Source: Candidatus Rokuibacteriota bacterium (lineage in GTDB: Bacteria; Methylomirabilota; Methylomirabilia; Rokubacteriales; CSP1-6). From it: a stretch of 64,000 nucleotides of DNA. Made by a program: the position numbers and the translations under genes. The stretch covers positions 107,502 to 171,501 of the forward strand of contig JACPDG010000037.1 of the NCBI GenBank assembly GCA_016184125.1, in the 5' to 3' direction. Every line of letters begins with the position of its first letter. Within the stretch, counting starts at the first letter, position 1. This document shows positions 31,382 to 51,282 of this stretch, one piece after another. Below the pieces are notes generated by a model that saw nothing but the letters and a program-made list of their open reading frames with translations, did no database searches and was not told the origin of the DNA.

Positions 31382-31765
31382 ATGAACATCTTGATCGTGG
31401 ACGATGAACCGGCAGTCGCCGAGGTGCTCGCGCATTCGCTCAGTCGTCAGGGCCACGCGACGACGGTCGCGCACTCCGGCGAGGAGGCCCTGCGGATCGT
31501 GCGGGACGCCACGCCGGACGCGATGTTCCTCGACGTGTCGATGCCGGGCATGAACGGGCTCGACGTGCTGCAAGAGATCAAGCGCACCCGCCCGTCGCTC
31601 GCCGTGGTCGTGATCACCGGCCACGCGACGGACGCCGAGCTCGACGAGGTGAAGCGGCTCGGCGCGGTGGACGTGATCCCGAAGCCGGCGGCCCTCACGC
31701 ACTATCACCAGGCCATCGAACGCCTCGGCAGGAAAACCCGCTTCCCGAGCCCCAAGGGCGTGTGA
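31382..31765 (+). CDS. Single-domain response regulator (CheY-like REC)
   Basis: 127 aa ([17 protein letters not shown]...VITG..K). It follows an unusually AT-rich leader. Confidence 0.85.
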
Positions 31766-31777
31766 TACAGCACACCC

Positions 31778-33019
31778 GTGATTCCTTCCCGCTGGTTCCC
31801 CCCGTGCCTCGCCCTGCTCGCGGTCTGCCTTGCCGTCGCGCCGGTCTCGGCGCAGTTCCCCGCTGGGCGTCGCCCCGCCGCCGGTGCGCGGCGGCTCCAG
31901 CAACCGGTGCGCGCGCCGGTCACGCTCACGCCGTCGGTCACGGTGACCGAGGAGTACAACGACAACGTCCTCCTGAACAATGACGTCCGCCGCTGGGACC
32001 TGATCACGTCGATCACGCCCGCGCTCACCCTCGCGGCCGAGCAGCCGACGTGGCGCATCAACGCGGCGTACGATTTCTCGACGCGGCTCTACGCGCGCGA
32101 TCCGGACCGCAACCGCGCCTTCGACCGCCAGAACTTCGACCTCGAGAGCTCGTACCAGGTCGACCCGATGCTCGGGCTGTCCCTCGCCGACAGCTTCTCG
32201 TTGGACACCGGCATCAACGTGTTCTCGCCCGAGGGCATCGCCACCGGCCGCGACCGCGCCTGGAGCAACAGCATCCGGCCGGCGGCGAGCTTTCGCCTCG
32301 ACCGGCTCACCACGCTGCGCGGCGGCGGCGCGTGGACCGTGACGCGCTTCGAGCGCGCGGGCCTCAGGGACTCGGACACGTGGGGCGCCGACGCCACCGT
32401 GGATCGCGCGCTGACTCCGCGCCTGCGCGGAACGCTGGGCTACGAGTTCGGCCTCTTCGACATCGAGACCGTGCCGGACGTCACGACGCACACACCGCGC
32501 GTCGGCCTCACGTACGAGTTCACGCCGACGATCTCCGGCACGCTCTCCGGTGGCCCGACGTTCGAGCAGCGCGAGGACGGTGACGACCGGGTCACCCCGG
32601 CGATCGCCGCGAGTCTCGCGCAGCGCTTCATCTGGGGCGCCGTGACGCTGTCCTACGACCGCGCCGTCGGCACGGCGGGCGGCCTCGGCGGCACCACCGA
32701 CAACCAGAGCGCCGGCGCGGGCGTCGCGGTCACGACGCTCCTGCGCGGACTCACGATCGAGTTCGCGCCGCGCTACCGCACGTTCAAGAGCGACGACGCC
32801 GCGATCGGCCACATCGACGTCGTGTCCGTCTCGCTCCCGCTCCAGGCGACGTACCAGATCACGCCGTGGTTCGGCCTCACCGCCGGCTATGCGTTCTTCC
32901 GCCAGCGCGCGGACACGAACGTGGTCAGCACGACGACGCCGGCCACGCTCGGCAACGACGTCGATCAGAACCGCGTCTTCTTCGGCCTCCAGGTCGGCTA
33001 CCCGATTCGCTTCGATTGA
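31778..33019 (+). CDS. Predicted outer-membrane beta-barrel protein of the EPS/exosortase locus
   Basis: GTG start with a signal peptide (LALLAVCLAVAPVSAQ). It has alternating beta-strand patterning and a C-terminal aromatic residue (..GYPIRFD). It resembles the uncharacterised beta-barrel families associated with PEP-CTERM loci. Confidence 0.65.
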   Translation: MIPSRWFPPCLALLAVCLAVAPVSAQFPAGRRPAAGARRLQQPVRAPVTLTPSVTVTEEYNDNVLLNNDVRRWDLITSITPALTLAAEQPTWRINAAYDFSTRLYARDPDRNRAFDRQNFDLESSYQVDPMLGLSLADSFSLDTGINVFSPEGIATGRDRAWSNSIRPAASFRLDRLTTLRGGGAWTVTRFERAGLRDSDTWGADATVDRALTPRLRGTLGYEFGLFDIETVPDVTTHTPRVGLTYEFTPTISGTLSGGPTFEQREDGDDRVTPAIAASLAQRFIWGAVTLSYDRAVGTAGGLGGTTDNQSAGAGVAVTTLLRGLTIEFAPRYRTFKSDDAAIGHIDVVSVSLPLQATYQITPWFGLTAGYAFFRQRADTNVVSTTTPATLGNDVDQNRVFFGLQVGYPIRFD

Positions 33020-33346
33020 CCGATGCGGGGGCCGGCAACGGCCCCCACGCCCGCCTCCGCACCACGGCTCCGGCACCGACGCGACGCCGAGGAGCGAGCA
33101 GGGCGAGGCGCCCGACGACGGCACGCCCGAGGCGTACTCCGAGTACGCCGCAGGGCGGGCCGAGGAGGGCAACGAAGCCATGCGACGCTCATCGGCGTCG
33201 CGTGCGGGATGCAACGCGTTGCTCGCGTGCTCTGCAGCGGGTTGCTGAATCAGGCGGATTTCCCGCGCGGACGTGTGCGCGTGAGGCGCCGCGCACCGGT
33301 TCCGTAACTCGCCGTGAACACGGACAACTCCGCCGTCGTGCACGGT

Positions 33347-33361
33347 GTGGCACTCCCGTTG
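33347..33361 (+). promoter_or_regulatory. Consensus sigma-54 promoter TGGCAC-N5-TTGC upstream of the priming sugar transferase
   Basis: GTGTGGCACTCCCGTTGCGCT at 33344-33364, giving GG-N10-GC. The -12 GC lies 32 nt upstream of the ATG at 33393, followed by GAGAAGG. Confidence 0.55.
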
Positions 33362-33392
33362 CGCTCTGGTCCGCTCGAGAAGGCCACCGGCG

Positions 33393-34739
33393 ATGTCCCT
33401 CGCAGACCGCCTCCCGTGGATCGACGCGCTCTCCACCACGACGGCCATCGCGGCGGCGATGCTGCTGTGGCCGGTGCCGGGCCCACCCGCGACTCCGGCC
33501 GAGGTCACCGCGCGCGCCGCCGTCGTCGTCGGCGTCGCGTTGCTCGCCTTCTACTACAACGACCTCTACGACTTCGACGTGCCTCACGAGACCGGAGACG
33601 TCTTTCTCCGATTGTGCCGCGCGGTCGGCGTGACCGCGATCCTCCTCGCGGCGACGTACGCGATCTTCCCGGGGCTCGTCGTCACGAGCACCGCGGTCTC
33701 CCATGCGCTCCTGTTGATGCTCGCGGCGGTGCTCGCGACGCGTGTCGCCGTGTACGCGCTGGCGAAGCACCCGCCGTTCGCGGAGCGGATCGTGATCATG
33801 GGCGGCGGCGCGCTCGCCGCCGACCTCGCGGCACAGATCGGCACACGCCAGGACGTCCCGCTGGTCGTCGTCGGCTTCCTCGGTGATCCGGCGATGACGC
33901 CGACGCCCGGCCCGCGCCTGGGCGCGTACGCGGACGTCGACGAGGTCGTGCGGCGTCACCGTCCCGACCGCATCGTCGTGGCGATGCCCGACCGGCGCGG
34001 CAACCTGCCCGTCGCGCAACTCCTCGCCTGCCGCTTCCGCGGCGTCGCCGTCGAGGACGGCGCGCTCACGTGGGAGCGCGTCACGCGGCGCCTGCCGGTC
34101 GAGTCGCTCACGCCGAGCGCGCTCATCTTCGGCGACGGCTTCCGCGTGTCGCGGCCGCGCCAGGCGCTCCAGCGCGCGCTGAGCCTCGCGGTCGCCGTGA
34201 CCGGGCTCGTGCTCGCCGCCCCCCTCGGCGCGCTGATCGCGATCGCGATCACGCTCGAGTCGCGCGGTCCCGTCTTCTTCGTCCAGGAGCGGGTCGGCCT
34301 CGGCGGCCGCTCGTTCCGCCTCGTCAAGTTCCGCACCATGCGCGTGGGGGACGAGACATGCGATGGCGTCTGGCGGCGCGACAACGCGAGCCGCGTGACG
34401 CCGCTCGGCCGCGTGCTGCGCAAGTACCGGATCGACGAGCTGCCGCAGTTCCTCAACATCCTGCGCGGGGACATGAACCTCGTGGGTCCGCGTCCCGAGA
34501 TGGCGTCGAACGTCGCGACGTTCACCGCGTCGATCCCGTTCTACGGCCTGCGCCACGAGGTGCGGCCGGGCCTCACCGGCTGGGCCCAGGTGAAGGCGGG
34601 CTACTCGATGACGACGGAAGAGGTGACGCGCAAGCTCTGCTACGACCTCTACTACGTCAAGCACGCGTCCCTCGCGTTCGATCTGCGCCTCCTGGTCGAT
34701 ACGGTCAAGTTCGTCCTGAGCGGCAAGCGACCGGGATGA
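33393..34739 (+). CDS. Exopolysaccharide polyprenyl-phosphate glycosyl-1-phosphate transferase (WbaP/EpsB-like priming sugar transferase)
   Basis: N-terminal TM helices, then the C-terminal bacterial sugar-transferase domain (SRGPVFFVQERVGLGGR.F...KFRTM, DELPQF.N.L.G.M..VGPRP). Confidence 0.85.
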   Translation: MSLADRLPWIDALSTTTAIAAAMLLWPVPGPPATPAEVTARAAVVVGVALLAFYYNDLYDFDVPHETGDVFLRLCRAVGVTAILLAATYAIFPGLVVTSTAVSHALLLMLAAVLATRVAVYALAKHPPFAERIVIMGGGALAADLAAQIGTRQDVPLVVVGFLGDPAMTPTPGPRLGAYADVDEVVRRHRPDRIVVAMPDRRGNLPVAQLLACRFRGVAVEDGALTWERVTRRLPVESLTPSALIFGDGFRVSRPRQALQRALSLAVAVTGLVLAAPLGALIAIAITLESRGPVFFVQERVGLGGRSFRLVKFRTMRVGDETCDGVWRRDNASRVTPLGRVLRKYRIDELPQFLNILRGDMNLVGPRPEMASNVATFTASIPFYGLRHEVRPGLTGWAQVKAGYSMTTEEVTRKLCYDLYYVKHASLAFDLRLLVDTVKFVLSGKRPG

Positions 34740-34887
34740 GCCACGTCAAACGTTTCCCTACATGTGGCACGCGCCTCCCTCAATGCACGGTCGCGCCCGC
34801 GAAATGCGCGCGTCGCCGCACGATGTCGGCGGTCCGGCACGTGTCTTGCGACAACCCGTTCACGACATGCAAGCGAGTGCAGCCTCG

Positions 34888-36324
<1,437 letters not shown>

Positions 36325-36356
36325 CAGGGCGGCCGCATACCCGGAGGATCACGTTC

Positions 36357-37064
36357 ATGACCACACCGAGATCCATCGTGATGTCGCTGGCACTCGTCGC
36401 CGTCACGTCGACGGTCGCCGTCGCCCAGACGAAACCGGTGAACCCGCCGGCCGCCGTTTCCGGAGCGCCCGCGAGGAGCGTGCCGGCGGCCTCGGCCGCG
36501 ACCGGCACGACAGCGACGATCGCGCCGGCCGCGGCCCCCACGGGGCCGGCCACGGCCCCGCGCGGTCTCGCCCCGGCCGTCCCGACCGACTACGTGATCG
36601 GGCCCGACGACGTGCTGTTCGTCACCGTGTGGAAGAACGACACGCTGTCGAAGCAGGTCCCCGTGCGGCCCGACGGCAAGATCTCGCTGCCGCTGCTGCA
36701 CGACATCCAGGCGGCGGGGCTGACCGCGATGCAGCTGCAGGACAAGATCGCCGTGGCGCTCGGGGAGTTCATGCCGAACCCCGAGGTGTCCGTGATGATC
36801 ACCGACGTCCGCAGCTACCGCGTGTCGGTGCTCGGCGAGGTCAACCGGCCGGGCGTGCTGCAGCTCAAGGCCGAGACCTCGATCCTCGAGGCCCTCGCGA
36901 TGGCCGGCGGCTTCCGCGACTTCGCATCGCCGTCCAAGATCATGGTCTTCCGCAAGGACTCCTACGGGAACACGCACAAGCTGCGCTTCAACTACAACAA
37001 GGCCCTCCGCGGCGACGAGGACAACCTCGCGCTCAAGACCGGCGACGTCATCGTCGTGCCCTGA
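36357..37064 (+). CDS. Polysaccharide export outer-membrane protein (Wza/EpsE-like)
   Basis: Signal peptide, Poly_export motif (YVIGPDDVL.V.VW) and a SLBB domain. ATG after GGAGGA. Confidence 0.8.
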   Translation: MTTPRSIVMSLALVAVTSTVAVAQTKPVNPPAAVSGAPARSVPAASAATGTTATIAPAAAPTGPATAPRGLAPAVPTDYVIGPDDVLFVTVWKNDTLSKQVPVRPDGKISLPLLHDIQAAGLTAMQLQDKIAVALGEFMPNPEVSVMITDVRSYRVSVLGEVNRPGVLQLKAETSILEALAMAGGFRDFASPSKIMVFRKDSYGNTHKLRFNYNKALRGDEDNLALKTGDVIVVP

Positions 37065-37087
37065 CCTGATCCGGGAGAGGGTGTCCC

Positions 37088-38755
37088 ATGACGACCGTGC
37101 ACGAGACTCCAGCGCGCCAGCAGGGCCTGGCGGCCCTCGCCGAGACCCTGCGACGGCGCAAGCTCCTGGCCCTGGTGCCGTTCCTGTTCGTGCTCGCGGC
37201 GACCGCGTCGGTCGCGTTCTTCCTGCCGAGCGTGTGGCGCTCGCGCGCGGTGATCATGGTCGACCGCCAGCAGATCCCCGAGGCGTTCGTCAAGTCGACG
37301 GTCGTGAGCGGCCTCGAGAGCCGGCTCCTGACGCTCTCGCAGGAGATCCTGGCGCGCGCCCGCCTCCTCGAGATCATCGAGCGACACGCCCTCTATCCGG
37401 CGCTGCGCGACACGGCGAGTCCCGACGAGCTCGTGGACAAGATGCGGCGGGACATCCGCATCGAGTTCATGGATCAGGGTGACCGCCGCTCGCGCGGCCG
37501 CGACGCGCGCACGCTCGTCTTCAGCGTCGGCTACACCGCCCCGAGCCCGGCGGTGTCGACCGCGGTGTCGAACACCCTCGCCGCGCTCTACGTCGAGGAG
37601 AACGTCAAGCTGCGGGAGCGCCAGGCGGCCGGCACGTCCGACTTCCTCGAGGCGCAGCTCGCGGAGGTCCGGAAGCGGCTCGCCGACCAGGAGACGAAGA
37701 TCGCCGCGTACAAGGAAAAGCACATGGGCGAGCTGCCCGAGCAGCGGGACGCCAATCTCCGCACGCTCGAGCGCCTGCAGCAGCAGCTGGCCCTCGTCCA
37801 GGAGACCCACCGGCGCGCGCTCGAGCGCCGGCAGATGATCACGCACAGCCTCGCCGAGCTCGACGTGGCCGGGAGCGGTACCACGTCCGAGCCGGCGCCC
37901 AGCCGGGCGAGCACGGCCCAGGCGCGGCTCACGCTGCTCGGGCAGGAGCTCGCGCAGCTGCTGACCAAGTTCAGCGAGAAGTACCCCGACGTCATCTACA
38001 CGAAGGAGCAGATCCGCGTGCTCGAAGCGCGCGTCGCCGAGGAGGCCGCGCAGGCGAAGGCCGAGGCCGCCGCCTCGCCGCGCCCTGACGCCGACACCGC
38101 GCGCCGCCGGCTCGTCCCGCAGAACAGCTACGTGCAGAGCCTGATGAGCCAGCTCGACCAGGCGAACCTCGAGGCGAAGGCCGGCGTGCAGCAGATCGCC
38201 GACCTCCAGCGCCAGATCGCGCTCTACCAGAAGCGCGTCGACGCGACGCCGCGGCGCGAGCACGAGCTCGCCCTGATCACGCGCGACTACGAGACGACGC
38301 GGGAGCTGTTCCGCTCGCTCCTCGGGAAGCGTGAGGAAGCCAACATCGCCGCGGACCTCGAGCAGCGCAAGAAGGGCGAGACGTTCCGCATCCTGGAGGC
38401 GGCGACGCCGCCGGACCGGCCGCTCGGCCCCAACCGGCTGCGCCTGCTCCTGGTCGGCCTCGTCCTCGCGGTCGGCGCCGCCGGCGCCGCGGTCGTCCTC
38501 GCCGAGAACGTCGACACCTCGTTCCGCCGGGTCGACGAGCTGCGCGCCCGGTTCCCGGTCCCCGTGCTCTCCGCGATCCCGCGGATCACCACCGAGAGCG
38601 ACCGGCGACGGCTCGCGCGCCAACGGCGCGTCGCCGTGGCGGCCGCCGGCCTCGGGCTCCTCGTCGTGATCGGCTCGTCGTGGGCGATCGCGCGCGACAA
38701 CCAGGAGCTCGTCGGGCTGCTGGCGCCGGACACCGCTCCGACGACGAAGAGGTAG
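37088..38755 (+). CDS. Polysaccharide chain-length determinant (Wzz/GumC-like, PEP-CTERM locus type)
   Basis: N-terminal TM helix, a long periplasmic coiled-coil region and a C-terminal TM helix. Confidence 0.8.
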   Translation: MTTVHETPARQQGLAALAETLRRRKLLALVPFLFVLAATASVAFFLPSVWRSRAVIMVDRQQIPEAFVKSTVVSGLESRLLTLSQEILARARLLEIIERHALYPALRDTASPDELVDKMRRDIRIEFMDQGDRRSRGRDARTLVFSVGYTAPSPAVSTAVSNTLAALYVEENVKLRERQAAGTSDFLEAQLAEVRKRLADQETKIAAYKEKHMGELPEQRDANLRTLERLQQQLALVQETHRRALERRQMITHSLAELDVAGSGTTSEPAPSRASTAQARLTLLGQELAQLLTKFSEKYPDVIYTKEQIRVLEARVAEEAAQAKAEAAASPRPDADTARRRLVPQNSYVQSLMSQLDQANLEAKAGVQQIADLQRQIALYQKRVDATPRREHELALITRDYETTRELFRSLLGKREEANIAADLEQRKKGETFRILEAATPPDRPLGPNRLRLLLVGLVLAVGAAGAAVVLAENVDTSFRRVDELRARFPVPVLSAIPRITTESDRRRLARQRRVAVAAAGLGLLVVIGSSWAIARDNQELVGLLAPDTAPTTKR

Positions 38756-38757
38756 GC

Positions 38758-39723
38758 ATGTACCTCAAGTTCTACGGCCTGCGCGAGGCGCCGTTCGCCC
38801 CCACGCCGGATCCGAAGTTCCTCTTCCAGTCGACCCGTCACCGCGAGGCGCTCGCGCAGCTCGTCTACGGCGTGCGCGAGCGCAAGGGCTTCATCGTGCT
38901 CACCGGCGAGATCGGCACGGGCAAGACGACGCTGCTCCGCACGCTCCTCGAGCGGCTGGACGGGCAGACCCCCGTCGCATACGTCCACAACTCGGCCCTC
39001 GAGATCGAGGGACTGCTCGAGTACATCCTCCACGACTTCGGCGTGAAGTCCACCGCCCGGAGCCAGGCCCAGCGGCTCGTGGAGCTCAACGAGTTCCTCA
39101 TCGAGCAGCACCGCCAGGGGCGGTCGCCCGTGCTCGTGATCGACGAGGCGCAGAACCTCGCCATTCCCACCCTCGAGGCCGTGCGCCTGCTCTCGAACTT
39201 CGAGACCACGCACGAGAAGCTGATGCAGATCCTGCTCGTCGGGCAGCCGGAGCTCCGCGACAAGCTGAACGCGCCGGAGCTCCGGCAGCTCAAGCAGCGC
39301 GTCGGGCTGCGCTGCCACATCGCCCCGCTGTCGCCCGAGGAGGCGCGCCTCTACATCCGGCACCGCCTGCGCGTGGCCGGCGCCGCCGACGCGGGTCTCT
39401 TCACGGACGGCGCGATCCAGACGATCGCGGAGTACTCGCAGGGCACGCCGCGCGTGATCAACATCGTGTGCGACCACTGCCTGCTCACCGGCTACGCGGA
39501 TTCGACCAGGCGCATCGACGCCGACATCGCCGGCGAGGCCATCGAGTACCTCGAGGACGGCGAGCGGCGCGAGTGGAAGCGCAGCCGCCACGTGCGGCTC
39601 GTGCCCAGCCGCACGGCCGTGTGGGCGGCGCGCAGCGGCGTCGCCGTCCTCGTGGTCCTCGTCGCCCTCATGCTCGTCTTCGCCGCCAACGCCCTCGGCT
39701 GGCTCGGCGGCGTCATTCGATAG
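38758..39723 (+). CDS. ExeA-like AAA+ ATPase of exosortase/EPS loci
   Basis: MYLKFYGLREAPF...Walker A GEIGTGKTTL. Domain order matches the 'PEP-CTERM locus ATPase' family. Confidence 0.85.
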   Translation: MYLKFYGLREAPFAPTPDPKFLFQSTRHREALAQLVYGVRERKGFIVLTGEIGTGKTTLLRTLLERLDGQTPVAYVHNSALEIEGLLEYILHDFGVKSTARSQAQRLVELNEFLIEQHRQGRSPVLVIDEAQNLAIPTLEAVRLLSNFETTHEKLMQILLVGQPELRDKLNAPELRQLKQRVGLRCHIAPLSPEEARLYIRHRLRVAGAADAGLFTDGAIQTIAEYSQGTPRVINIVCDHCLLTGYADSTRRIDADIAGEAIEYLEDGERREWKRSRHVRLVPSRTAVWAARSGVAVLVVLVALMLVFAANALGWLGGVIR

Positions 39724-39732
39724 AGGAGCCCC

Positions 39733-41701: not shown

Positions 41702-41705
41702 GAGA

Positions 41706-41808
41706 GGAGCCCGTGAACGAATCCGGTGCCCGAGCCGCGTCCCGGGTCCCCCGGGACGCGTGCGAGCGACCGGGGGGGCTTGGGGGGGCTTCGATAGTCC
41801 CCCCCATG
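41706..41808. repeat. Hairpin repeat family, copy F (inverse orientation); supplies the udk start codon
   Basis: ..CTTGGGGGGGCTTCGATAGTCCCCCCCATG. The terminal CCCCCCATG is the ATG of the uridine kinase gene. Confidence 0.75.
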
Positions 41809-42456: not shown

Positions 42457-43696
42457 AGCCCCGGCCCGCGGGGGCGACGAGGTCATCGACTTCCCGCTCT
42501 GCCGGGACCCGCGCCACGAGGCCGCGATCCGGCGCGTGCTCGTGCGCTGCCTCGACGTCGTGCAGGAGCGGCTCGGCTCGGACAAGCTCGTAGCGCTCGT
42601 GCTGACCGGCAGCTTCGCGCGCGGCGAGGGGAGCGTCATGAGCGGCGAGCGCGTGCCGCGCGTGCTCGGCGACATCGAGTTCCTCGCCGTGTTGCCGGGC
42701 GAGGTCGACTTCCACCGGCTCCGCGGCTCCTTCCCCGCGTGGAGCGAAGAGGCGAGCCGGCTCGCGAGCGACGAGGTGCGTGTCGACATCGAGTTCGGCC
42801 CCGTCGAGATCGGCTATCTCGCGCGGCGCGCACGGCCCTCGATCTTCGTCTACGACCTGATCCGCCACGGCAAGGTGATCGCGGGCCGTGCGGACATCCT
42901 GGGCGAGGTGCCGGCGTTCACGCCGGCCGACATCCCGCCGCACGACGCGGTCCACCTCGTCTTCAACCGGCTCATCGAGCAGCTCGAGGCGTACGACCGG
43001 GCCGCGGAGCTCGACGACATCGCACTCTGGGACGTCGCGTACCAGCGGACCAAGCTCGTCCTGGATCTCGCCGGCTCCGCGCTCGCGTTCCGGGGTCGTC
43101 ACGAGCCGTCCTATGCCAGCCGCCCCCGCGCGTTCGCCCGGCTGCTCGAGGAGGAGCCCGCGCTCGCGCTCGCGCTCCCGCCGGGCTTCCTCGGCGAGCT
43201 CGACCGGGCGGCACGCCTGAAGCTCGTGCCGGGCGACGGTCGGGACGTTCTGCCCCCGCACCTCCCACCCGCAGCGCAGCGCGCATGGGTCCGCGAGCGC
43301 ATCGTCGCCGGCGTGCCAGCCGTCGCCTCCGTGCTCCGCTGGGAGCTCGAAGCCTTGCTCGGAATGCACGGCGACCTGCCGCCCCTGCTCGCTCGCTGGA
43401 TGCGCCGGCACCACTGGACGCGCCGGGCCTGGGACTGGACGAAGGTCGCGCTGCACCCGGTGCCGGCGCCCGTGCCGCTCGCGCGCATCCGCGCCGCCCG
43501 GCGCGCCGTCACGTCGACGCCGCGCGCGCTCCTCTACACGGCCGGCGCGCTCGCGTACCTGAACCTGCATCGCCCCACCGCCCGCCCGTCGGCGATCGCA
43601 CGGCTGCTGTTCGTGCGGCGCGCGGCACGCCGAGACCCGGCCGCGCAGCGGCAGACGATCACGTTGCTCTGGCGGTGGTGCGTGCGCAACACCTGA
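42434..43696 (+). CDS. Hypothetical protein with a Pol-beta-like nucleotidyltransferase motif
   Basis: GSFARGEG..S...D.EF region near the N-terminus, the rest unassigned. GTG start overlapping the udk stop. Its position inside the EPS operon is notable. Confidence 0.45.
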   Translation: MPADSLRRAPARGGDEVIDFPLCRDPRHEAAIRRVLVRCLDVVQERLGSDKLVALVLTGSFARGEGSVMSGERVPRVLGDIEFLAVLPGEVDFHRLRGSFPAWSEEASRLASDEVRVDIEFGPVEIGYLARRARPSIFVYDLIRHGKVIAGRADILGEVPAFTPADIPPHDAVHLVFNRLIEQLEAYDRAAELDDIALWDVAYQRTKLVLDLAGSALAFRGRHEPSYASRPRAFARLLEEEPALALALPPGFLGELDRAARLKLVPGDGRDVLPPHLPPAAQRAWVRERIVAGVPAVASVLRWELEALLGMHGDLPPLLARWMRRHHWTRRAWDWTKVALHPVPAPVPLARIRAARRAVTSTPRALLYTAGALAYLNLHRPTARPSAIARLLFVRRAARRDPAAQRQTITLLWRWCVRNT

Positions 43697-43706
43697 GGAC
43701 TCCCGA

Positions 43707-44990
43707 ATGCCCTTGGAGCCGCTGTCGATCTACGTGCTCGTGGACGCGCTCGGCTGGGAGCTCATCAAGGACCGGCCGTTCCTCGACGACATCCTCACCG
43801 AGAAGCGCTCGCTCACGACCATCCTCGGCTACAGCTCTGGCGCGATCCCGTCCATTCTCTGCGGGAGACCGCCGAGCGAGCACGGCCACTGGAACCTCTT
43901 CTACTACTCGCCCGCCACGTCGCCGTTCCGCTGGACCCGGCCGCTCTCACGCCTCCCCGCGCCACTGCGCGAGAACCGCGTGGCGCGCCGGCTGCTCAAG
44001 GGCGTCGCGCGACGGGTGTCGGGGTACACCGGCTACTTCTCGCTCCATGCGTACCCGGTGCCGCACCTGCCGTACTTCGACATGACCGAGAAGCGGGACA
44101 TCTACCAGCCGGGCGGCCTCGATGCGCCCTCGATCTTCGATGTCTTCGTCCGGCACGGGATCCGGTGGGAGACCTACAGCTACCACCGCCACACGGACGC
44201 CCAGATCCTCGACCTGGCGCCGCGCCGCGCCCGGCAGACGGACGCGCGCGTGCTCTTCCTGTACCTGTCCGGCCTCGATCACTACCTGCACTGGAACGTG
44301 CACGATCGCGAGGGCGTCCACGCGCAGCTCGACTGGTACGCGCACGGCCTCCGTGAGATCTGGCGCGCGGCGCAGCAGGCGCGGGACGACGTCCGCATGG
44401 TGCTCTTCTCCGACCACGGCATGACGCCGATCCGATGGACGTACGATCTCGCCCGCGACGTCCGCGCGCTCGGCCTCCGGCTCCCCGGCGACTATCTGTC
44501 GGCCTACGATTCGACGATGGCCCGCTTCTGGGTGTGGAACGACCGTGCGCGCGCGACGCTCGAGGCGCTGCTCGCCGACCATCCGTGCGGGCAGCTCCTC
44601 TCGCCGGCCGAGCTCGACCGGCTCGGCGTCTGGTTCGAGGACGGCCGGTACTACCACCTGCTTTTCCTCGCCCGGCCGGGCCTGCTCATCTCTCCGAGCG
44701 ACATGGGGCACGTCCGCTTCGCCGGCATGCACGGCTACCACCCGAGCGAGCCGACGGCCGACGCCGTGCTGCTGTCGACCATCGAGGTCCCCAAGCCGGT
44801 CGACCACATCACCGCCATCCAGCGCGTCTTGCTGGGCGACCTCGGCGTTCCTGGAAGTGGGGGCCCCGACATGGCCCCCACACCCCCCGCGCTCGGAAGC
44901 GCCCCGGGTTCCCCGGGGCGCTCCTCGACCACGCGATCGAGCCACCAGCCGCCGGCGTTGGAGGTCGCGACACCGGTGAAGCACACGTGA
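43707..44990 (+). CDS. Alkaline-phosphatase-superfamily protein (type I phosphodiesterase/nucleotide pyrophosphatase family)
   Basis: IYVLVDALGWE, the FSDHGMTP metal-site motif, and a C-terminal HGYHPSEP. Confidence 0.7.
   Translation: MPLEPLSIYVLVDALGWELIKDRPFLDDILTEKRSLTTILGYSSGAIPSILCGRPPSEHGHWNLFYYSPATSPFRWTRPLSRLPAPLRENRVARRLLKGVARRVSGYTGYFSLHAYPVPHLPYFDMTEKRDIYQPGGLDAPSIFDVFVRHGIRWETYSYHRHTDAQILDLAPRRARQTDARVLFLYLSGLDHYLHWNVHDREGVHAQLDWYAHGLREIWRAAQQARDDVRMVLFSDHGMTPIRWTYDLARDVRALGLRLPGDYLSAYDSTMARFWVWNDRARATLEALLADHPCGQLLSPAELDRLGVWFEDGRYYHLLFLARPGLLISPSDMGHVRFAGMHGYHPSEPTADAVLLSTIEVPKPVDHITAIQRVLLGDLGVPGSGGPDMAPTPPALGSAPGSPGRSSTTRSSHQPPALEVATPVKHT
44858..44945. repeat. Hairpin repeat family, copy G, inside the 3' end of the alkaline-phosphatase-like ORF
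   Basis: GGGGGCCCCGACATGGCCCCCACACCCCCCGCGCTCGG... The last ~45 aa of the ORF are repeat-encoded. Confidence 0.7.
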
Positions 44991-46159
44991 GCCCGATCCG
45001 CCTGCTCTTCGTCCTCACGTCCGCGGTGCGTGGCGGCGTGGAAGAGGTCGTCCTGGCGCTCGCGACCCGCCTCGATCGCTCGGAATTCCGGGTCGCGATC
45101 GCCGCGCCCGCGACGCTGCTCGACGCGTTCGCCGCGGACCTCGCGCGGCATCCCGTCGACACGCTCCCCGTCGACGCCGAGAGCTGGCTCAGACGCGCCG
45201 AGGTGGACCGCTTCGCGCGCTTCCTTCGCGCCTGGCGTCCGGAGATCGTGAACCCCCACTTGTTCCGGTCGACGCTCGTGTCCGTCCCGCTCGCCCGCTG
45301 GCACGGCGTCCCCGCGATCGTCGAGACGTACCACGGCCGGGAAGGCTGGCGACAGGACCGGCTCAGTTCGAGCCACGATCGAGCGCCCGGGCGCTCGATC
45401 GTGGCTCGAACTCTCGGCGCGTCGTTCGCACTCGACCGCGCGATGAGCCACCTCATCGATCGCGTCATCGCCGTATCGGAGGCGGCTCGTGACTTTCTCG
45501 TCCACGGCAAGGGGTACGCGGCCCGCAAGGTGGTCGTCGTCCCGAACGGCCGCGATCTCACGACGTTCACGCCCGGCGTGCACCGCGAGCAGATCAGGAA
45601 GGAGCTCGGGCTCGACGGCTCGGTCCCCATCGCCGGCGTCGTCGGCCGCCTCGAGATGCAGAAGGGCCACGCCTACCTCCTCGAGGCGTGGCCCGCGGTG
45701 CTCGCCGAGCTGCCCGACGCTCGGCTCGTGCTCGCCGGCGATGGCAGCCTGCGCGACGCGCTCGTGCAGAAGGCAGGTGCGCTCGGCATCGCCGACCGCG
45801 TGATCTTCCTCGGCTTCCGGCCGGACGTGCCCCGCGTCCTCGACGCGATCGACGTCCTGGCGCTGCCGTCCCTCTACGAAGGCATGCCGCTGACGGCGAT
45901 CGAGGCGGCCGCGATGGCGCGTCCCGTCGTCGCCACCGCGGTGGACGGCACGGTGGAGGTCGTGCGCGACGGGGTGACCGGCTCGCTCGTTCCGCCCGGC
46001 GATCCACCCGCACTCGCACGGGCGCTGACCGCGATCCTCGGTGATCCCCCCCGAGCCGCGCGCATGGGGGCGTCCGGACGCGCCTGGGCGTGCGAGCGCT
46101 TCGACCTGGACCGGCAGGTGGAAGCGACCGCGCGGGTCTACCGGAGCGCTCTGGCATGA
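44987..46159 (+). CDS. Glycosyltransferase family 1 (GT4-type), EPS locus
   Basis: GTG overlapping the upstream stop. GT1 C-terminal motifs (GRLE.QKG, LPSLYEG.P....EA.A) are present. It carries a 16-aa in-frame insert encoded by a 48-nt palindrome. Confidence 0.85.
   Translation: MSPIRLLFVLTSAVRGGVEEVVLALATRLDRSEFRVAIAAPATLLDAFAADLARHPVDTLPVDAESWLRRAEVDRFARFLRAWRPEIVNPHLFRSTLVSVPLARWHGVPAIVETYHGREGWRQDRLSSSHDRAPGRSIVARTLGASFALDRAMSHLIDRVIAVSEAARDFLVHGKGYAARKVVVVPNGRDLTTFTPGVHREQIRKELGLDGSVPIAGVVGRLEMQKGHAYLLEAWPAVLAELPDARLVLAGDGSLRDALVQKAGALGIADRVIFLGFRPDVPRVLDAIDVLALPSLYEGMPLTAIEAAAMARPVVATAVDGTVEVVRDGVTGSLVPPGDPPALARALTAILGDPPRAARMGASGRAWACERFDLDRQVEATARVYRSALA
45365..45412. repeat. 48-nt perfect palindrome (AGTTCGAGC-N30-GCTCGAACT) inserted in-frame in the GT1 gene
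   Basis: Verified self-reverse-complementary. It has the same length and 9-nt ends as the element at 796-843 and encodes SSSHDRAPGRSIVART within the ORF. Confidence 0.9.
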
Positions 46160-47553
46160 GTGAACCGCTGTTCTGGCTCGCCGCGCTGCTGCTCGCGTAC
46201 ACGTGGGCCGGCTACCCGCTCGTGCTGGGTCTCGTCACGCGTCGCGCGCGCCCGCGTCGACGTGAGCTCATGGGGGGATTGTCGATGCCCCCGACACCCT
46301 TACGAAGGGGGCTCACGCCCCCCTCGTCCCCCGGCCCCGCGCTCGGAGCGCCCCGGGGGGGGCGCGCGGACGCACCCGTGCGGTGCGCGGACGCACCCGT
46401 GCGGTGCGCGGACGCACCCGTGCGGTGCGCGGACGCACCCGTGGTGCGCGGACGCACCCGACAAAGCCGTGGCGCTCCTCGATCACCCGATTCGCTCTCA
46501 CGCCGCCGGACGTGCCCGCGAGTCAGCGTGATCGTCGCCGCGTACAACGAGGGCGGGTGCATCGCCGGCAAGATCCGCAGCACGTTCCAGCAGCGGTACC
46601 CCTGGGACTGCCTCGAGCTCATCGTCGTTTCCGACGGCTCGACCGATGGAACGGACGATGTCGTGAAGCGGTATCCGGACCCGCGCGTGAAGCTGATCCG
46701 GCAGGAGCCCCGCAGCGGGAAGTCGGTGGCCCTGAACCGGGGCGTCGCCGCCGCGCGCGGCGACGTCCTCGTCTTCACGGACGCGAACGCCGTGTTCGCG
46801 CCCGGCGCGATCGCGCGCCTCGCGGCGCCGTTCGACGACCGGCGGGTCGGCCTCGTCTCGGGACAAGGCCTCTACGCGTCCGGCGCGGCCGATGCCCGCG
46901 CGGTGTCGAACGGCTACGTCCGCTTCGAGGCGTTCCTCAAGCGTGGCGAGGCCGCGCTCGGCTTCGTCGCCGGGGCGGACGGGGCGATCTACGCGTTGCG
47001 GCGCGAGCTGTATCGCGAGCTGCACGGCGCGCAGGTGAACGACCTCCTGCACCCCGTCCAGGCGGCGCTGGCCGGGACCCTGTGCCGCTTCGATCCGAAG
47101 GCGTTCACCCTCGAGCCGCCGTCGCGCGGGGGCAGCCAGGAGTTCAGCCGGCACGTGCGGATCATCGCGCAGGGAGTCCACATCGTGCGCGAGTGGCTCC
47201 CCCGACTCGTCGCCGCGCGCCGCTGGCGCGCCGTGTGGATGCTCGTGTCGCACCGCATGCTCCGCTGGGTGACCGCGCCGTCGCTCGGCGTGATGCTGCT
47301 CGCGAACGCGCGACTCGCCGGCGGTGACACGTTCTACGCCATCACGCTGGCCGGACAGGGTCTGTTCTACGCGACGGCGCTCACCGGGTACCTCGCCGAG
47401 CGGCTCGGCGTCCACCTCGGGCCCCTCGCAATTCCGTACTACTTCTGCACGGTCGCAGCCGCCGGCATCGTCGGTCTCGCCCGGTTCGCGCGGCGCGGCG
47501 CCGAGAGCGTCTGGGCACCCCGGGGGCACGCCGCCGTGTCGAAGCGTGCATGA
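46156..47553 (+). CDS. Glycosyltransferase family 2 with an in-frame ~88-aa repeat-element insertion
   Basis: N-terminal TM helix (LFWLAALLLAYTWAGYPLVLGL), then the repeat-encoded segment, then the GT2 core (VSVIVAAYNE, VVSDGSTDGT, DAN). The frame is maintained throughout. Confidence 0.7.
   Translation: MSEPLFWLAALLLAYTWAGYPLVLGLVTRRARPRRRELMGGLSMPPTPLRRGLTPPSSPGPALGAPRGGRADAPVRCADAPVRCADAPVRCADAPVVRGRTRQSRGAPRSPDSLSRRRTCPRVSVIVAAYNEGGCIAGKIRSTFQQRYPWDCLELIVVSDGSTDGTDDVVKRYPDPRVKLIRQEPRSGKSVALNRGVAAARGDVLVFTDANAVFAPGAIARLAAPFDDRRVGLVSGQGLYASGAADARAVSNGYVRFEAFLKRGEAALGFVAGADGAIYALRRELYRELHGAQVNDLLHPVQAALAGTLCRFDPKAFTLEPPSRGGSQEFSRHVRIIAQGVHIVREWLPRLVAARRWRAVWMLVSHRMLRWVTAPSLGVMLLANARLAGGDTFYAITLAGQGLFYATALTGYLAERLGVHLGPLAIPYYFCTVAAAGIVGLARFARRGAESVWAPRGHAAVSKRA
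46269..46505. repeat. Hairpin repeat family copy H with internal 21-bp x ~4.5 tandem repeat, inside the GT2 coding sequence
   Basis: CATGGGGGGATTGTCGATGCCCCC... followed by GCGCGGACGCACCCGTGCGGT x4, which encodes RCADAPV repeats. Confidence 0.8.
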
Positions 47554-48716
47554 AGGTTGATCGACACGGGGGGGAGCGGTCGCCGCGACCGGCCGCGCCC
47601 GGGGGCACGGCGCTCACCGTGCGGCGCATCTACAACGCCGATCGGTGGAACTGCATCGTCCAGGGCTTCCCGCGGTACGACCTCAGGCAAGGGTTCGAGT
47701 GGGGCGAGCTGAGGGCCGAGCAGCGCTGGCGTCCCGTCCGGTTCGCGGTCTTGCGTGACGCGGAACCGGTCGCCGCGTGCGCGGTGCTCTGCCGCGCGAT
47801 CCCCGGCGCGGGCGGCATCCTCTATGTCCCGCGGGGGCCGCTGTTCCGGTCCGACGTTCCCGCCGGTCTCGATCGCGTCCTCGAAGAGCTGAGGGCGCTC
47901 GGTCGGCGCACGCGCGCGATCGCCGTCCGGATCAGCCCGCCCGTGCCGATGGACGACACCGACAGCATCGCGTGCCTCGACCGCAGCGCGCTCGCGACCG
48001 TGCCGGAGCCCTGGACGACGTGGAACTCGCCGCGCTACGTGCAGGTGCTCCATCTCCGGCGTCACGAGGCGGAGCTGCTCCGCGGCGTCCGCCGGCGGTT
48101 CCGCGAGTACATCGCCGCGGCACCGCGCCGGCGGCTCGTCATCGAGCCGTCGGACCGTGACGACGACCTCGTCGAGTTCCACGCGCTCATGCTGGACGCC
48201 GGGCGCATGAAGGGCTTCCCGGTCCGCGATCTCGCCTGGTACCGCGCGCTCGTGCGTCACTACCGGCCGGAACGTGCCGTCACGCTGCTCGTCGCCCGCG
48301 AGCAGGACACGATGGTCGGCGGACTGCTGGCGGTTCGCTTCGGACGCAAGAGCTACATGCTCTACACGTCGGTGCGCGGGACCCTCGCGGAGTCCGCCCG
48401 CCACCACGTCGCGCCGGCGCTCTGCTGGGAGTACAGCCGGCGGGCGCGCGCCGAAGGATGCGAGCTGGCCGACCTCGGTGGCACCGGCGTCGGCATCCCG
48501 CCGCAGGAGGGGGACCCGGGCTGGGGTCTCTACCACTTCAAGGCCGGGCTCGGATGCTCCCTGGAGACGTTCGTCCACCTGCGCGACATGGTGCTCCGGC
48601 CGCTCCTCTATCGCCTGTTCCGCGCCTGCGAGGCGCAGCTTCTGCCGCCCCTGTGGCGGCTCGTCGCCCGTGCGCCTCGAGCATGGCCGGCGCGCCTCGT
48701 CGGGGCGGCGGCGTGA
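47550..48716 (+). CDS. FemAB-family (GNAT-fold) protein, exosortase-locus subfamily
   Basis: Acyltransferase fold with the LYHFK...C motif near the C-terminus. ATG overlaps the GT2 stop (ATGA). Confidence 0.75.
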   Translation: MKVDRHGGERSPRPAAPGGTALTVRRIYNADRWNCIVQGFPRYDLRQGFEWGELRAEQRWRPVRFAVLRDAEPVAACAVLCRAIPGAGGILYVPRGPLFRSDVPAGLDRVLEELRALGRRTRAIAVRISPPVPMDDTDSIACLDRSALATVPEPWTTWNSPRYVQVLHLRRHEAELLRGVRRRFREYIAAAPRRRLVIEPSDRDDDLVEFHALMLDAGRMKGFPVRDLAWYRALVRHYRPERAVTLLVAREQDTMVGGLLAVRFGRKSYMLYTSVRGTLAESARHHVAPALCWEYSRRARAEGCELADLGGTGVGIPPQEGDPGWGLYHFKAGLGCSLETFVHLRDMVLRPLLYRLFRACEAQLLPPLWRLVARAPRAWPARLVGAAA

Positions 48717-50377
48717 GCGCCCGCGGCGCGCTGCTCAGGAACACGTTCTGGTACGGCCTCGTCACCGTCGGCGGCCTGCTCACCGGCGTCGTGATGTCCG
48801 TCGTGCTCGCGCGCGGGCTCGGGCCCGCCCGAATGGGCGAGTACTCGTACGTGCTCTGGGTGGGGCGCACGCTGACCGCGATCGCCACCCTGGGCTTCGC
48901 GCTCGCGACGACCCGCTACACCGCGACCGCCCTCGCGAAGGGCGACGCGGCGCTCGCGTGGGGCTTCGTCCAGCTCCTCAGGCGGCGCCAGCTCGCGACG
49001 ACGGCGATCGTCGCGGCGATCGCGATCCCCGTGATGCTGCTCGCCGCCCCCGGGTCACTCCGCTGGCCGCTGGTCGTCGTCTGCCTCGCGCTCTTTCCCG
49101 TGGCGCTCGAGCACATCTACTCGCACGCGGTGTACGGCGGGCAGCGGTACGAGCTCACCGCGAAGGCGAGCGCGGTCAAGATGTCGCTTCATCTCCTGGC
49201 CGCCGTCACGGTGCTGTCCCTCGGCTTCGACATCCTCGGCCTCGTCATCGCGAACACGATCGGGACGACGATCGCCTGCGCCGTGCAGCGTGGCAGCGTC
49301 CGCCGCATCTACCCGCGCGCGGCGGCGCCCGTGCCGGACGACGCCCGCGCCGAGCTGCGCGCCTACCTGGTGCCGCTGTCCGTGGTCGTCGTGCTCGATG
49401 CCATCGTGTGGGACCGGTCCGAGGTCTTCTTCCTGAGACTCTGGGCATCCCCGCAGGATGTGGCGTTCTACAGTCTCGCGTTCGGGCTCGCGACCAAGGC
49501 GATGGTGCTCCCCGAGGTCGCGGTCGGGGCGCTGCTGCCGACGTTCTCCGCGCTCCACGGCCGCGGCGCCTCGGGAGAGTTCCGTGCCGTCTACCGTTCG
49601 GCCCTGCGCCACGTCGCGCTCGCCGCCGTCGCCATCGCATCGATCGGCGGCGCCCTCGCTCCCGGCATCGTCGGCTTGCTCTATGGCGAGCAGTACCTCC
49701 CGGTCGCGGCGCTGTTCGCGGCGCTCGTCTCCGTGGCGGCGGTGTCCTCGATGCGCCGCGTCGCCTGGTCCGCGCTCCGTGGCGCCGGAGACCGCCGCTG
49801 GGCCGTCACGGCCACGAGCCTGGCGGCGGCCGTCAACCTCGCCGCCGCCGCGCTCCTGATCCCGAGCGGCGGCGTCTGGGGCGCGCTCGCCGCGAACAGC
49901 GCCGCCCAGGGCGTGGCGACGCTGATCGCCTTTGCGGTGATGGCGCGGACACACGACTGCGGCTTCCCGATCGCGGCCGTCGCGAGGATCGCCCTCGCGG
50001 GCACGCTCGCGCTCGTGACCACGATGGCCGTGCTCGACGGCGAGACGCACGTCCTGCGCCTGCTCGTCGCAGGCGCCACCGGATTCACGGTGTACGCCGG
50101 CGCGTGCGCCGGCCTCCGCGTGGTCGGGCGCGCCGAGTGGCACGTCGTGAGCCGGACGCTGCGTCGCAGGCTCGGGGCCCGTGAACGAATCGGCGTGCCG
50201 AGCCGGGCCCGGGTTCGCCCCGGGCCCGGCGAACGCTTGGGAGGGGTGCGGGGCCATGTCGGGGCCCCGCATGATCTCGGACCTCGACCCGCGCCGGCGC
50301 CCAGGACATCCGGCGCGCCGGGGAGCGAACCGTTCACGAAGGTGCCGGCCCCGGCCGCCCCTCCGCAGGGAGATTGA
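48713..50377 (+). CDS. Polysaccharide biosynthesis flippase (Wzx/MOP family); C-terminal tail encoded by repeat copy I
   Basis: GTG overlapping the FemAB-like gene stop. About 12 TM helices. The last ~60 aa (..ARERIGVPSRARVRPGPG..) are repeat-derived. Confidence 0.75.
   Translation: MSARGALLRNTFWYGLVTVGGLLTGVVMSVVLARGLGPARMGEYSYVLWVGRTLTAIATLGFALATTRYTATALAKGDAALAWGFVQLLRRRQLATTAIVAAIAIPVMLLAAPGSLRWPLVVVCLALFPVALEHIYSHAVYGGQRYELTAKASAVKMSLHLLAAVTVLSLGFDILGLVIANTIGTTIACAVQRGSVRRIYPRAAAPVPDDARAELRAYLVPLSVVVVLDAIVWDRSEVFFLRLWASPQDVAFYSLAFGLATKAMVLPEVAVGALLPTFSALHGRGASGEFRAVYRSALRHVALAAVAIASIGGALAPGIVGLLYGEQYLPVAALFAALVSVAAVSSMRRVAWSALRGAGDRRWAVTATSLAAAVNLAAAALLIPSGGVWGALAANSAAQGVATLIAFAVMARTHDCGFPIAAVARIALAGTLALVTTMAVLDGETHVLRLLVAGATGFTVYAGACAGLRVVGRAEWHVVSRTLRRRLGARERIGVPSRARVRPGPGERLGGVRGHVGAPHDLGPRPAPAPRTSGAPGSEPFTKVPAPAAPPQGD
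50178..50272. repeat. Hairpin repeat family, copy I (inverse orientation)
   Basis: CCCGTGAACGAATCGG...GGGGCCATGTCGGGGCCCCGCATG. Confidence 0.75.
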
Positions 50378-50380
50378 CCG

Positions 50381-50425
50381 ATGCGCATCCTCGTCACCGG
50401 CGGCGCCGGTTTCATCGCAGCATGA
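50381..50425 (+). pseudogene. 14-codon remnant of an NAD-dependent epimerase/dehydratase N-terminus (MRILVTGGAGFIAA*)
   Basis: Rossmann signature VTGGAGFI terminated by a TGA that overlaps the exosortase ATG. Confidence 0.35.
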
Positions 50426-51282
50426 CGGCGCTGGCGCGTGTCTCTTCGCAGTCGATCGGCGGCACGGCCGTCCTCGTCCTCGGCGGGCTGCTGGCGGTGG
50501 CCTACGTTCCCGTGCTGATCGATGTGACGGTCGTCGCGTGGAGCGTGTCCTACTACTCGCACGCGTTGCTCGTCCCGCTCTTCAGCGCCTGGCTGCTCTG
50601 GCAGGATCGCCGATCGAGGAACGGCGGCCCACCTGCGATCCTGCCGGGCGTCCTCCTCCTCGGGATCGCGGCGGCCGTGCTCGTGACCGGCACCGTCGCG
50701 GCGAGCCTCACGCTTCGCGCGCTGTCGATCGTCCCTGGCGCGTTCGGCATCGCACTCCTGACGGCCGGCCGCGCCGGCACACGCGCGAGCGCCTTCCCGA
50801 TCGGGTTCCTGGTGCTGATGGTCCCGCTGCCTTCCGGCGCGATCCCGCAGCTGTCGCTCCCGCTCCAGCAGCTCGCCGCCAACGTGGCGGCGTTCGCGCT
50901 GAACACGAGCGGCATCCCGTCGATCCAGCAGGGGCTCCTCGTCCACATGCCGAACGGCATCAGCCTTCACGTCACCGAAGCCTGCAACGGGCTGCGCTTC
51001 CTGTTCGCCATGCTCGTCGTCGGCGTCGCGTTCGCCGGGCTCGCGGTGCGCGGGACGATCCGGCGCGGGCTGACCGTGCTCCTGGCCCTCGCGATCGCGA
51101 TCGCCGCGAACCTCGTCCGTGTGAGCGGCACGGGCGTAATCGCGTACGCCTGGGGTCCGGAAGCCGCGTCCGGGTTCATGCACGTGGCGTACGGGAAGAT
51201 CGTGTACGCGGTCATGCTCGTGCCCTTCGCGGCGGTCGTGCTGCTCCTGCGCCGCTCGAGCGTGAGCGTCACGTCGCGATAG
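50422..51282 (+). CDS. Exosortase (EpsH/XrtA family)
   Basis: Polytopic membrane protein with the conserved exosortase Cys region (TEACNGLR) and an Arg (R.L.A.A.A.N..R). Confidence 0.8.
   Translation: MTALARVSSQSIGGTAVLVLGGLLAVAYVPVLIDVTVVAWSVSYYSHALLVPLFSAWLLWQDRRSRNGGPPAILPGVLLLGIAAAVLVTGTVAASLTLRALSIVPGAFGIALLTAGRAGTRASAFPIGFLVLMVPLPSGAIPQLSLPLQQLAANVAAFALNTSGIPSIQQGLLVHMPNGISLHVTEACNGLRFLFAMLVVGVAFAGLAVRGTIRRGLTVLLALAIAIAANLVRVSGTGVIAYAWGPEAASGFMHVAYGKIVYAVMLVPFAAVVLLLRRSSVSVTSR

Follow-up and report, generated by a model that had tools for sequence, protein, structure and literature searches.

The closest described systems are those of Proteobacteria, the only phylum in which PrsK/PrsR/PrsT, together with a two-part box before the PEP-CTERM substrate genes, were found; motif 1 of this box ends in TTTACA and lies ~63 nt upstream of the sigma-54 site (Haft et al. 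2006, PMC1569441). pepA, a PEP-CTERM gene of Aquincola, is RpoN-dependent, and epsB2, prsK and prsR lie in one cluster there (PMC9850573, on floc formation in Aquincola/Zoogloea). We analysed a 64-kb stretch of Candidatus Rokubacteria (Methylomirabilota) DNA from contig JACPDG010000037.1, hereafter the window, of which roughly 33 kb (~30135-62919) is, judged by its gene content, an exosortase-type exopolysaccharide (EPS) synthesis and export locus. The cluster is of a known kind; its predicted switch is unusual, comprising at least five conserved sigma-54 promoters and two activators, bEBP0 and bEBP1, which from their sequences could not be switched by the usual phosphorylation. Soil harbours Rokubacteria and Acidobacteria in abundance, most of them uncultured, and the polysaccharides of their matrix influence how soil aggregates and retains carbon. 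A search of a collection of papers returned nothing that combines exosortase with Rokubacteria, sigma-54 with Rokubacteria, or exosortase with sigma-54 and Acidobacteria.

The base composition of the window is 71.7% G+C, and reading frames were chosen by third-position G+C; genes were identified by NCBIfam and Pfam profile matches, scored against curated cut-offs (Table 1). The priming transferase of the locus retrieved 12 orthologous loci (59-71% identity), all from Rokuibacteriota/Methylomirabilota metagenome-assembled genomes (MAGs). The gene order they have in common is GAF-HD-GYP, LexA, TatA, activator (minus strand), stand-alone receiver (REC), outer-membrane protein, transferase, activator, Wza, Wzz, ATPase, tyrosine kinase, deacetylase, uridine kinase, unknown protein, phosphodiesterase and GT4.

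As in the Proteobacterial XrtA/PEP-CTERM systems, the locus contains genes for an exosortase, a TIGR03006 deacetylase, a TIGR03019 FemAB protein, a TIGR03013-like transferase, a TIGR03015-like ATPase, a chain-length determinant, a tyrosine kinase, Wza and a TIGR03016-like outer-membrane protein, and a sigma-54 activator of the NtrC family is encoded beside the transferase. These EPS structural genes and the use of sigma-54 are what the locus shares with them. In contrast to the Proteobacterial systems, PrsK and PrsT are missing from the window, the activator beside the transferase does not reach the PrsR cut-off and its receiver is dead, and the locus has in addition an orphan REC and a further activator that lacks a receiver. 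Furthermore, its promoters precede genes for EPS and for regulators; the Proteobacterial box precedes the PEP-CTERM substrate genes. The window also has no PEP-CTERM gene, its exosortase is below the XrtA cut-off, and the phylum is another one.

We analysed the promoter of the priming transferase, P_primGT. Its TGGCAC-N5-TTGC is the one exact match that the window contains, against 0.03 expected; of 100 shuffled sequences, three had one. A first-pass annotation of the region, made from the sequence alone, had reported this motif; its place was given one nucleotide too far upstream (33347-33361), and the distance to the ATG at 33393 is 30 nt rather than 32. The site is kept in all 11 orthologous loci with upstream sequence (exact in 10, TGGCAT in one), 45-57 nt upstream of the transferase start, while its spacer (TTCCC, TCCCC, TGACC, CCCCC, TTCGC, CTGGC, TCGGC or TGCCC) and its flanks differ among loci. 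Because the motif persists in 11/11 orthologs as its surroundings vary, we regard it as a real sigma-54 promoter, as had been proposed. Coding constraint is ruled out, since the distance to the ATG shifts by non-multiples of three; for the same reason we rejected an N-terminal extension of the transferase from GTG 33345, which would have made the motif coding. None of the 68 loci with more distant transferase homologs (<50% identity) has the motif at that place. The 374-nt leader region gave no Rfam match to a riboswitch or other RNA element.

The first-pass annotation had named one promoter and one activator, an incomplete picture. As seen from Table 1, the locus has at least five conserved, predicted -24/-12 promoters, which would start five transcription units, and two paralogous activators. 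Unit 1 is bEBP0 (minus strand), unit 2 the priming transferase, and unit 3 the 14 genes from bEBP1 to the exosortase; unit 4, an operon on the minus strand, holds the genes of an O-antigen-ligase-like protein and of a decoration module of phosphonate type, and unit 5 encodes the TIGR03019 FemAB protein and a GT2. The start of bEBP1 at 34888, to which the P_bEBP1 distance refers, is the one from whose residue 1 the orthologs align. P_bEBP1 and P_FemAB2, each one mismatch away from the consensus, are judged from their conservation to be genuine as well. The P_s118 form, TGGCG[CT]-N5-TTGC[CG] on the minus strand, lies 158-213 nt upstream of P_FemAB2 wherever it recurs. A relaxed scan returned eight matches in the 64 kb, of which four sit 15-39 nt before genes of the locus in the correct orientation and none before unrelated genes; matches at 29995 and 41581 were put down to chance. 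Between 29700 and 37200 we found no sigma-70 consensus promoters, terminator-like sites or Rfam elements.

At two of these kinds of promoter, that of FemAB (~50 loci) and that of the activator gene in the Vicinamibacterales loci described below, the start codon is fixed 13-15 nt after the -12 TTGC. With a start site ~12 nt after the GC, the predicted 5' leaders would be at most ~3 nt long and would have no Shine-Dalgarno sequence.

The candidate activator sites are dyads of the form TGCA-N6-TGC[AT]. The window has five, all within 31129-34881, against 0.92 expected, and none of 100 shuffles reached five; of 23 occurrences across ten orthologous loci, 20 lie at matching positions. Two copies form the candidate enhancer of P_primGT, at a distance classical for enhancers, where TGCA is invariant in the alignment and which is found ~165 nt before the ATG in 8/10 orthologs; another overlies P_bEBP0. 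We infer that an activator recognising the TGCA dyad would stimulate the transferase promoter and dampen that of bEBP0. A strict enhancer common to P_primGT and P_FemAB2 (TGCA-N24-31-TGC[AG]) was found in 16/47 loci against ~1.3 expected but in only 3/11 for P_primGT, and was dropped, the TGCA-N6-TGCA dyad being preferred; the 9-mer TGCAACGCG, common to both promoter regions, is not significant by itself.

TTTACA and TGTA-N4-7-TACA each occur once in the window, both between bEBP0 and REC. The TTTACA (31327-31332) shares its strand with P_bEBP0 and precedes it by 73 nt. It recalls the TTTACA-ending box of Haft et al., but orthologs mostly read TTCTACA there, so that the link is at most putative. 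Before P_primGT, P_bEBP1 and P_FemAB2 this hexamer is absent. A further conserved block, CAAAC-N-TTT...ATC-GGCA (34741-34770), lies just past the transferase stop codon and precedes P_bEBP1 by ~90 nt; similar to an IHF core (TCAA-N4-TT), it may be a place where the DNA is bent or where an activator binds.

bEBP0 and bEBP1 are paralogs (53% identity) with nearly the same recognition helix (ISYRALLYKI in one of them). The designation of bEBP1 as PrsR-like in the first-pass annotation did not stand. Its score against the PrsR model TIGR02915 is 330.5 bits (cut-off 502.6), the AtoC, NifA, NtrC and NorR models score higher, and its receiver has lost the phosphorylation site: compared with CheY/NtrC, the substitutions are D12E, D13S, D57A, T87A and K109R, the same in 13 orthologs apart from two single substitutions. 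By these residues, bEBP1 cannot be a phosphorylatable, conventional response regulator, which would account for the missing PrsK. BerB, VpsR and Nla24 control exopolysaccharide synthesis. Activators with atypical receivers are known, of the FlbD type and of the VpsR/BerB/Nla24 type (PMC3333781, PMC5552954). bEBP1 shares with both types the REC-AAA+-HTH order and a receiver that cannot or need not be phosphorylated. It differs from them in that all five site residues are replaced, and in that its own gene is preceded by a sigma-54 promoter and is the first of the structural operon.

bEBP0 consists only of a sigma-54 AAA+ domain with its lid and a Fis-type HTH; its GAFTGA is at residue 98. This is a stable architecture and not a truncation, because all 120 best homologs (78-100% identity) are 330-387 residues long and lack a REC domain. 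A protein of 361 residues with 100% identity is present at NCBI from a Candidatus Rokubacteria MAG. Receiver-less sigma-54 activators are known from Pseudomonas syringae (HrpR/HrpS) and E. coli (PspF). Like these, bEBP0 has AAA+ and HTH only; it resembles HrpR/HrpS in having a close paralog in the same locus, and PspF in that its gene is divergent from the neighbouring operon and has a putative activator site over its own promoter. In contrast to both, its partner paralog keeps a degenerate receiver, and no PspA- or HrpV-like antagonist was recognised.

The stand-alone REC, on the other hand, keeps the equivalents of D12, D13, D57, T87 and K109 in the window and in nine orthologs. Its gene is invariably transcribed away from bEBP0 and is the first of the operon that encodes the outer-membrane protein of the locus. 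The earlier view that a plain REC heads the beta-barrel operon and that the wiring differs from PrsK/PrsR was well founded. Elsewhere in the window, a stressosome-like set (13433-19440) encodes an RsbR-N + STAS protein, a STAS protein, an RsbT-like kinase and a kinase/PP2C protein, followed by a 713-residue hybrid histidine kinase and a 398-residue kinase; these are candidate kinases for the orphan REC.

Taken together, the EPS locus is probably a sigma-54 regulon of five units with conserved promoters and two non-PrsR activators. In the mechanism that we propose, sigma-54 RNA polymerase would remain closed at the promoters until one or both activators bind upstream dyads (at the transferase promoter, the candidate TGCA-N6-TGCA) and drive open complex formation by ATP hydrolysis. 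Because the genes of both activators would themselves need sigma-54, the circuit would feed back on itself, either as a cascade or by mutual activation, and the same dyad over the bEBP0 core promoter suggests negative autoregulation of bEBP0. The signal would not pass through a PrsK-type kinase acting on the activator; its most likely entry would be the adjacent REC with its intact site, acting in trans, or, alternatively, a ligand of the degenerate bEBP1 receiver. The fullest form of this proposal is a kinase-independent, self-reinforcing sigma-54 switch in which bEBP0 and bEBP1 act together, possibly as mixed rings like those of HrpR/HrpS, REC serves in trans as a detached receiver (a 'split NtrC') and several promoters give essentially leaderless mRNAs; we offer it tentatively, as a rather doubtful extension.

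It is also possible, though on balance unlikely, that bEBP1 and/or bEBP0 are switched by a small molecule such as cyclic di-GMP (cf. VpsR, FleQ, BerB and Nla24), with REC serving another pathway. Activators that work independently of phosphorylation typically have a degenerate receiver, the control of Bep EPS by BerB and RpoN sets a precedent (PMC5552954), and cyclic di-GMP genes are at hand: GGDEF and REC-HD-GYP genes at 4591-6605, and a GAF-HD-GYP gene (25851-27809) that is syntenic with the EPS locus in every ortholog locus reaching that far. However, no cyclic di-GMP-binding motif was identified in either activator, the FleQ-type LFRS not being seen on reading both sequences, and the invariable placement of REC, divergent from bEBP0 and heading the outer-membrane protein operon, argues that it belongs to the system.

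A canonical two-component arrangement, in which a REC-AAA+-HTH activator is phosphorylated by a PrsK encoded elsewhere and acts at one promoter before the transferase, appears quite improbable. The domain order of bEBP1 fits, its partial match to TIGR02915 is strong, and its gene adjoins a TIGR03013-like transferase, as in the Aquincola epsB2-prsK-prsR cluster (PMC9850573). Nevertheless, that match is well short of the cut-off and is exceeded by several other models, and 13/13 orthologs have lost the phospho-acceptor aspartate together with the other four residues of the site. For none of the three kinases of the window do the 25 best family matches listed include PrsK (TIGR02916), the TPR protein of the window scores 19.5 bits against the PrsT model TIGR02917 (cut-off 312), and the 12 syntenic loci contain neither PrsK nor PrsT. 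Upstream of the transferase promoter the motif-1 hallmark TTTACA is missing, and the PrsKRT set with its box was found only in Proteobacteria (PMC1569441). That the -24/-12 matches are accidental, or owe their conservation to something else such as coding, the locus being read from sigma-70 promoters, is extremely improbable: matches with one mismatch allowed are near expectation (3 in the window versus 2.2), but the 5-nt spacer and the flanks vary around a hexamer and a tetramer that do not, the spacing from the ATG shifts out of frame, no sigma-70 consensus was found in 29700-37200, and two GAFTGA activators are encoded on the spot.

Several observations weigh against the sigma-54 regulon as we propose it. 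P_s118 is off consensus at two positions and was found in 44% of the related loci, and the operon of REC and the outer-membrane protein has no sigma-54 site. As regards the dyads, the site at 31129 lies in conserved coding sequence, the one at 34868 is not conserved in orthologs and was given no weight, and the dyad upstream of P_FemAB2 takes another form (TGTGCA...TGCG with TGACAC repeats), so that a single shared enhancer would be hypothetical at most. Finally, rpoN is not in the 64-kb window, and no PEP-CTERM substrate was seen in the window, so that the role of the exosortase is only putative.

A sigma-54 promoter directly before an activator gene that heads Wza, Wzz, kinase and transferase genes was found in 25 more distant loci, from Vicinamibacterales (Acidobacteria) and other Rokubacteria (L015-L072). 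They have in common with the window a sigma-54 promoter, the activator gene, and then Wza, Wzz, tyrosine kinase and transferase. In the Vicinamibacterales loci, unlike here, the receiver is intact (DD-D-S-K) and the transferase lies downstream in the operon without a promoter of its own; the paralogs of the activator in other Rokubacteria have partly degenerate receivers. Our analysis indicates that the link between sigma-54 and exosortase loci extends beyond Proteobacteria, with other parts (no PrsK/PrsT), and with promoters before biosynthesis and regulator genes and not before substrate genes alone. The comparative footprints amount to a testable regulon map of five promoters, candidate enhancers and two activators, which could be rebuilt in a heterologous host.

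Table 1. Genes, predicted promoters and candidate regulatory sites of the Rokubacteria EPS locus (positions in the window; distances of promoters are to the ATG of the gene they precede; bits are profile scores).
Feature	Position	Strand	Evidence and remarks
bEBP0, sigma-54 activator, AAA+ and HTH_8, no receiver, 361 residues	30135-31220	-	PF00158 232 bits, PF02954; no PF00072
TGCA-N6-TGCA dyad, candidate operator	31228-31241	.	over -12 to +1 of P_bEBP0; kept in 8/10 ortholog loci
P_bEBP0, TGGCAT-N5-CTGC	31239-31253	-	18 nt before ATG 31220; TGGCA[CT]-N5-nTGCA in 11/11 orthologous loci
TTTACA (31332..31327, -) and TGTA-N5-TACA dyad (31350-31362), bEBP0-REC gap	31327-31362	.	conserved alignment blocks
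Stand-alone receiver (REC), 127 residues	31382-31765	+	PF00072 101 bits; phosphorylation site intact
TIGR03016-like outer-membrane beta-barrel protein	31778-33019	+	TIGR03016 59 bits, cut-off 91; 12 nt after REC
Candidate enhancer of P_primGT, two TGCA-N6-TGCT copies 23 bp apart	33210-33246	+	138 and 115 nt upstream of the -24 element
P_primGT, TGGCAC-N5-TTGC sigma-54 promoter	33348-33362	+	sole exact match in window; conserved in orthologs
Priming polyprenyl-phosphate sugar-phosphate transferase	33393-34739	+	TIGR03025 354 bits (passes); TIGR03013 360 bits, cut-off 393; PF02397
P_bEBP1, CGGCAC-N5-TTGC	34835-34849	+	38 nt before ATG 34888; CGGCA[CT]-N5-TTGC invariant in 13/13 sequences
bEBP1, pseudo-receiver-AAA+-HTH sigma-54 activator, 478 residues	34888-36324	+	PF00158 236 bits, PF00072 57 bits, PF02954; GAFTGA
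Wza	36357-37064	+	NCBIfam/Pfam
Chain-length determinant (Wzz)	37088-38755	+	NCBIfam/Pfam
TIGR03015 ATPase	38758-39723	+	TIGR03015 311 bits, cut-off 324.5
Tyrosine kinase	39733-40845	+	NCBIfam/Pfam
Deacetylase	40838-41701	+	TIGR03006 325 bits, cut-off 276 (passes)
Uridine kinase	41806-42456	+	family match; inside operon
Unknown protein, 420 residues	42434-43696	+	no family match; GS-x-ARGE nucleotidyltransferase-like motif
Type I phosphodiesterase/nucleotide pyrophosphatase	43707-44990	+	family match; inside operon
GT4	44987-46159	+	NCBIfam/Pfam
GT2	46156-47553	+	NCBIfam/Pfam
FemAB-like protein	47550-48716	+	NCBIfam/Pfam
Flippase	48713-50377	+	NCBIfam/Pfam
Exosortase	50374-51282	+	TIGR02602 and PF09721 pass
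Minus-strand operon	52047-60272	-	Pfam/NCBIfam
P_s118 (candidate), TGGCGT-N5-TTGC	60329-60343	-	56 nt before ATG 60272; recurs in 22/50 related loci
[CG]TGAC[AG]C repeats, candidate shared enhancer	60408-60450	.	between divergent P_s118 and P_FemAB2; recur in related loci
P_FemAB2, TGGCAT-N5-TTGC	60582-60596	+	14 nt before ATG 60611; TGG[CT]A[CT]-N5-TTGC in ~60/75 related soil-metagenome loci
TIGR03019 FemAB-family XrtA-system protein, then GT2	60611-62919	+	TIGR03019 305 bits, cut-off 260 (passes); GT2 PF00535

Profile matches bore out the first-pass annotation's assignment of the region as an exosortase-type EPS locus, each gene class it had named being present. Its limits (31382-51282) were too narrow, the locus running ~11 kb further, to ~62919, and its gene list left out the uridine kinase, the 420-residue protein, the phosphodiesterase and the second activator. 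The true TIGR03019 FemAB gene (60611-61684) likewise lies beyond the range it covered. Among XrtA-system families, TIGR03006 and TIGR03019 are above their cut-offs; TIGR03013, TIGR03015 and TIGR03016 (Table 1) are below, as are TIGR03007 (265 versus 279 bits), TIGR03018 (139 versus 231), TIGR03027 (137 versus 180) and TIGR03097 (76 versus 188). The N-terminus of the beta-barrel protein looks like a signal peptide on inspection.

The 14 genes of 34888-51282 have intergenic gaps of -23 to +104 nt and would form a single operon headed by the activator gene. The long, tightly coupled operons described earlier, with ATGA/GTGA overlaps at 46156, 47550, 48713, 44987 and 12611, were all found. The uridine kinase, the 420-residue protein and the phosphodiesterase (41806-44990) are conserved in the operon of all orthologs reaching that far, and five orthologs have an extra GT1-like gene between deacetylase and uridine kinase, which the window lacks. 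A 7-bp G+C hairpin (GGCCGCC-TGACAG-GGCGGCC, 36316-36335) spans the bEBP1 stop codon, 22 nt before the Wza ATG; having no T-run, it may serve in attenuation or in transcript processing.

The exosortase passes the general models (TIGR02602, 151 bits versus 105.6; PF09721, 201 bits; the TIGR04178 signature, 56 versus 23), and C204 and R208 (in TEACNGLRF) and H270 (in FMHVAYG) are present, as read by eye and not from an alignment to a reference XrtA. Its earlier typing as EpsH/XrtA was too specific: the XrtA model TIGR03109 gives 174 bits (cut-off 208), equal to the score against XrtW (172.5 bits, cut-off 425). Two regular-expression scans for PEP-CTERM tails, over all open reading frames (ORFs) of the window and of 80 loci (L001-L080), gave no match in the window and none in its 12 orthologous loci; with the family scores given above, this confirms the reported lack of PrsK, PrsT and PEP-CTERM genes in the window. 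The scans gave one match in Rokubacteria, in the MAG locus L027, where no obvious sigma-54 site lies upstream of the gene.

The minus-strand operon (52047-60272) encodes a small protein, a cytidylyltransferase/2-aminoethylphosphonate-aminotransferase fusion, an NTP transferase, a CDP-alcohol transferase, a GT2 and a 1136-residue O-antigen-ligase-like protein. The phosphonate-type decoration module within it (55488-59781, minus strand) comprises the 628-residue nucleotidyltransferase/2-aminoethylphosphonate aminotransferase fusion (TIGR03301, 307 bits, cut-off 361), the second NTP transferase, the CDP-alcohol phosphatidyltransferase and the GT2. In related loci, an O-antigen-ligase paralog stands beside the FemAB gene in place of this block. 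We saw no gene for a PEP mutase in the window; a separate pair of genes for a class-V aminotransferase and a HAD hydrolase lies at 2363-4272 (minus strand). The 118-residue ORF that follows P_s118 (59916-60272, minus strand) matches a segment between two O-antigen-ligase-like genes in relatives, with a weak Ig-like BiPBP_C match, and may be the remnant of a rearranged larger gene.

Two genes for Uma2-family putative endonucleases are present, at 1651-2268 and 51341-51925 (both minus strand), the latter wedged at the convergent junction of the exosortase operon and the minus-strand operon. The sole Rfam match in the window is a tRNA gene at 19512-19583 (minus strand).

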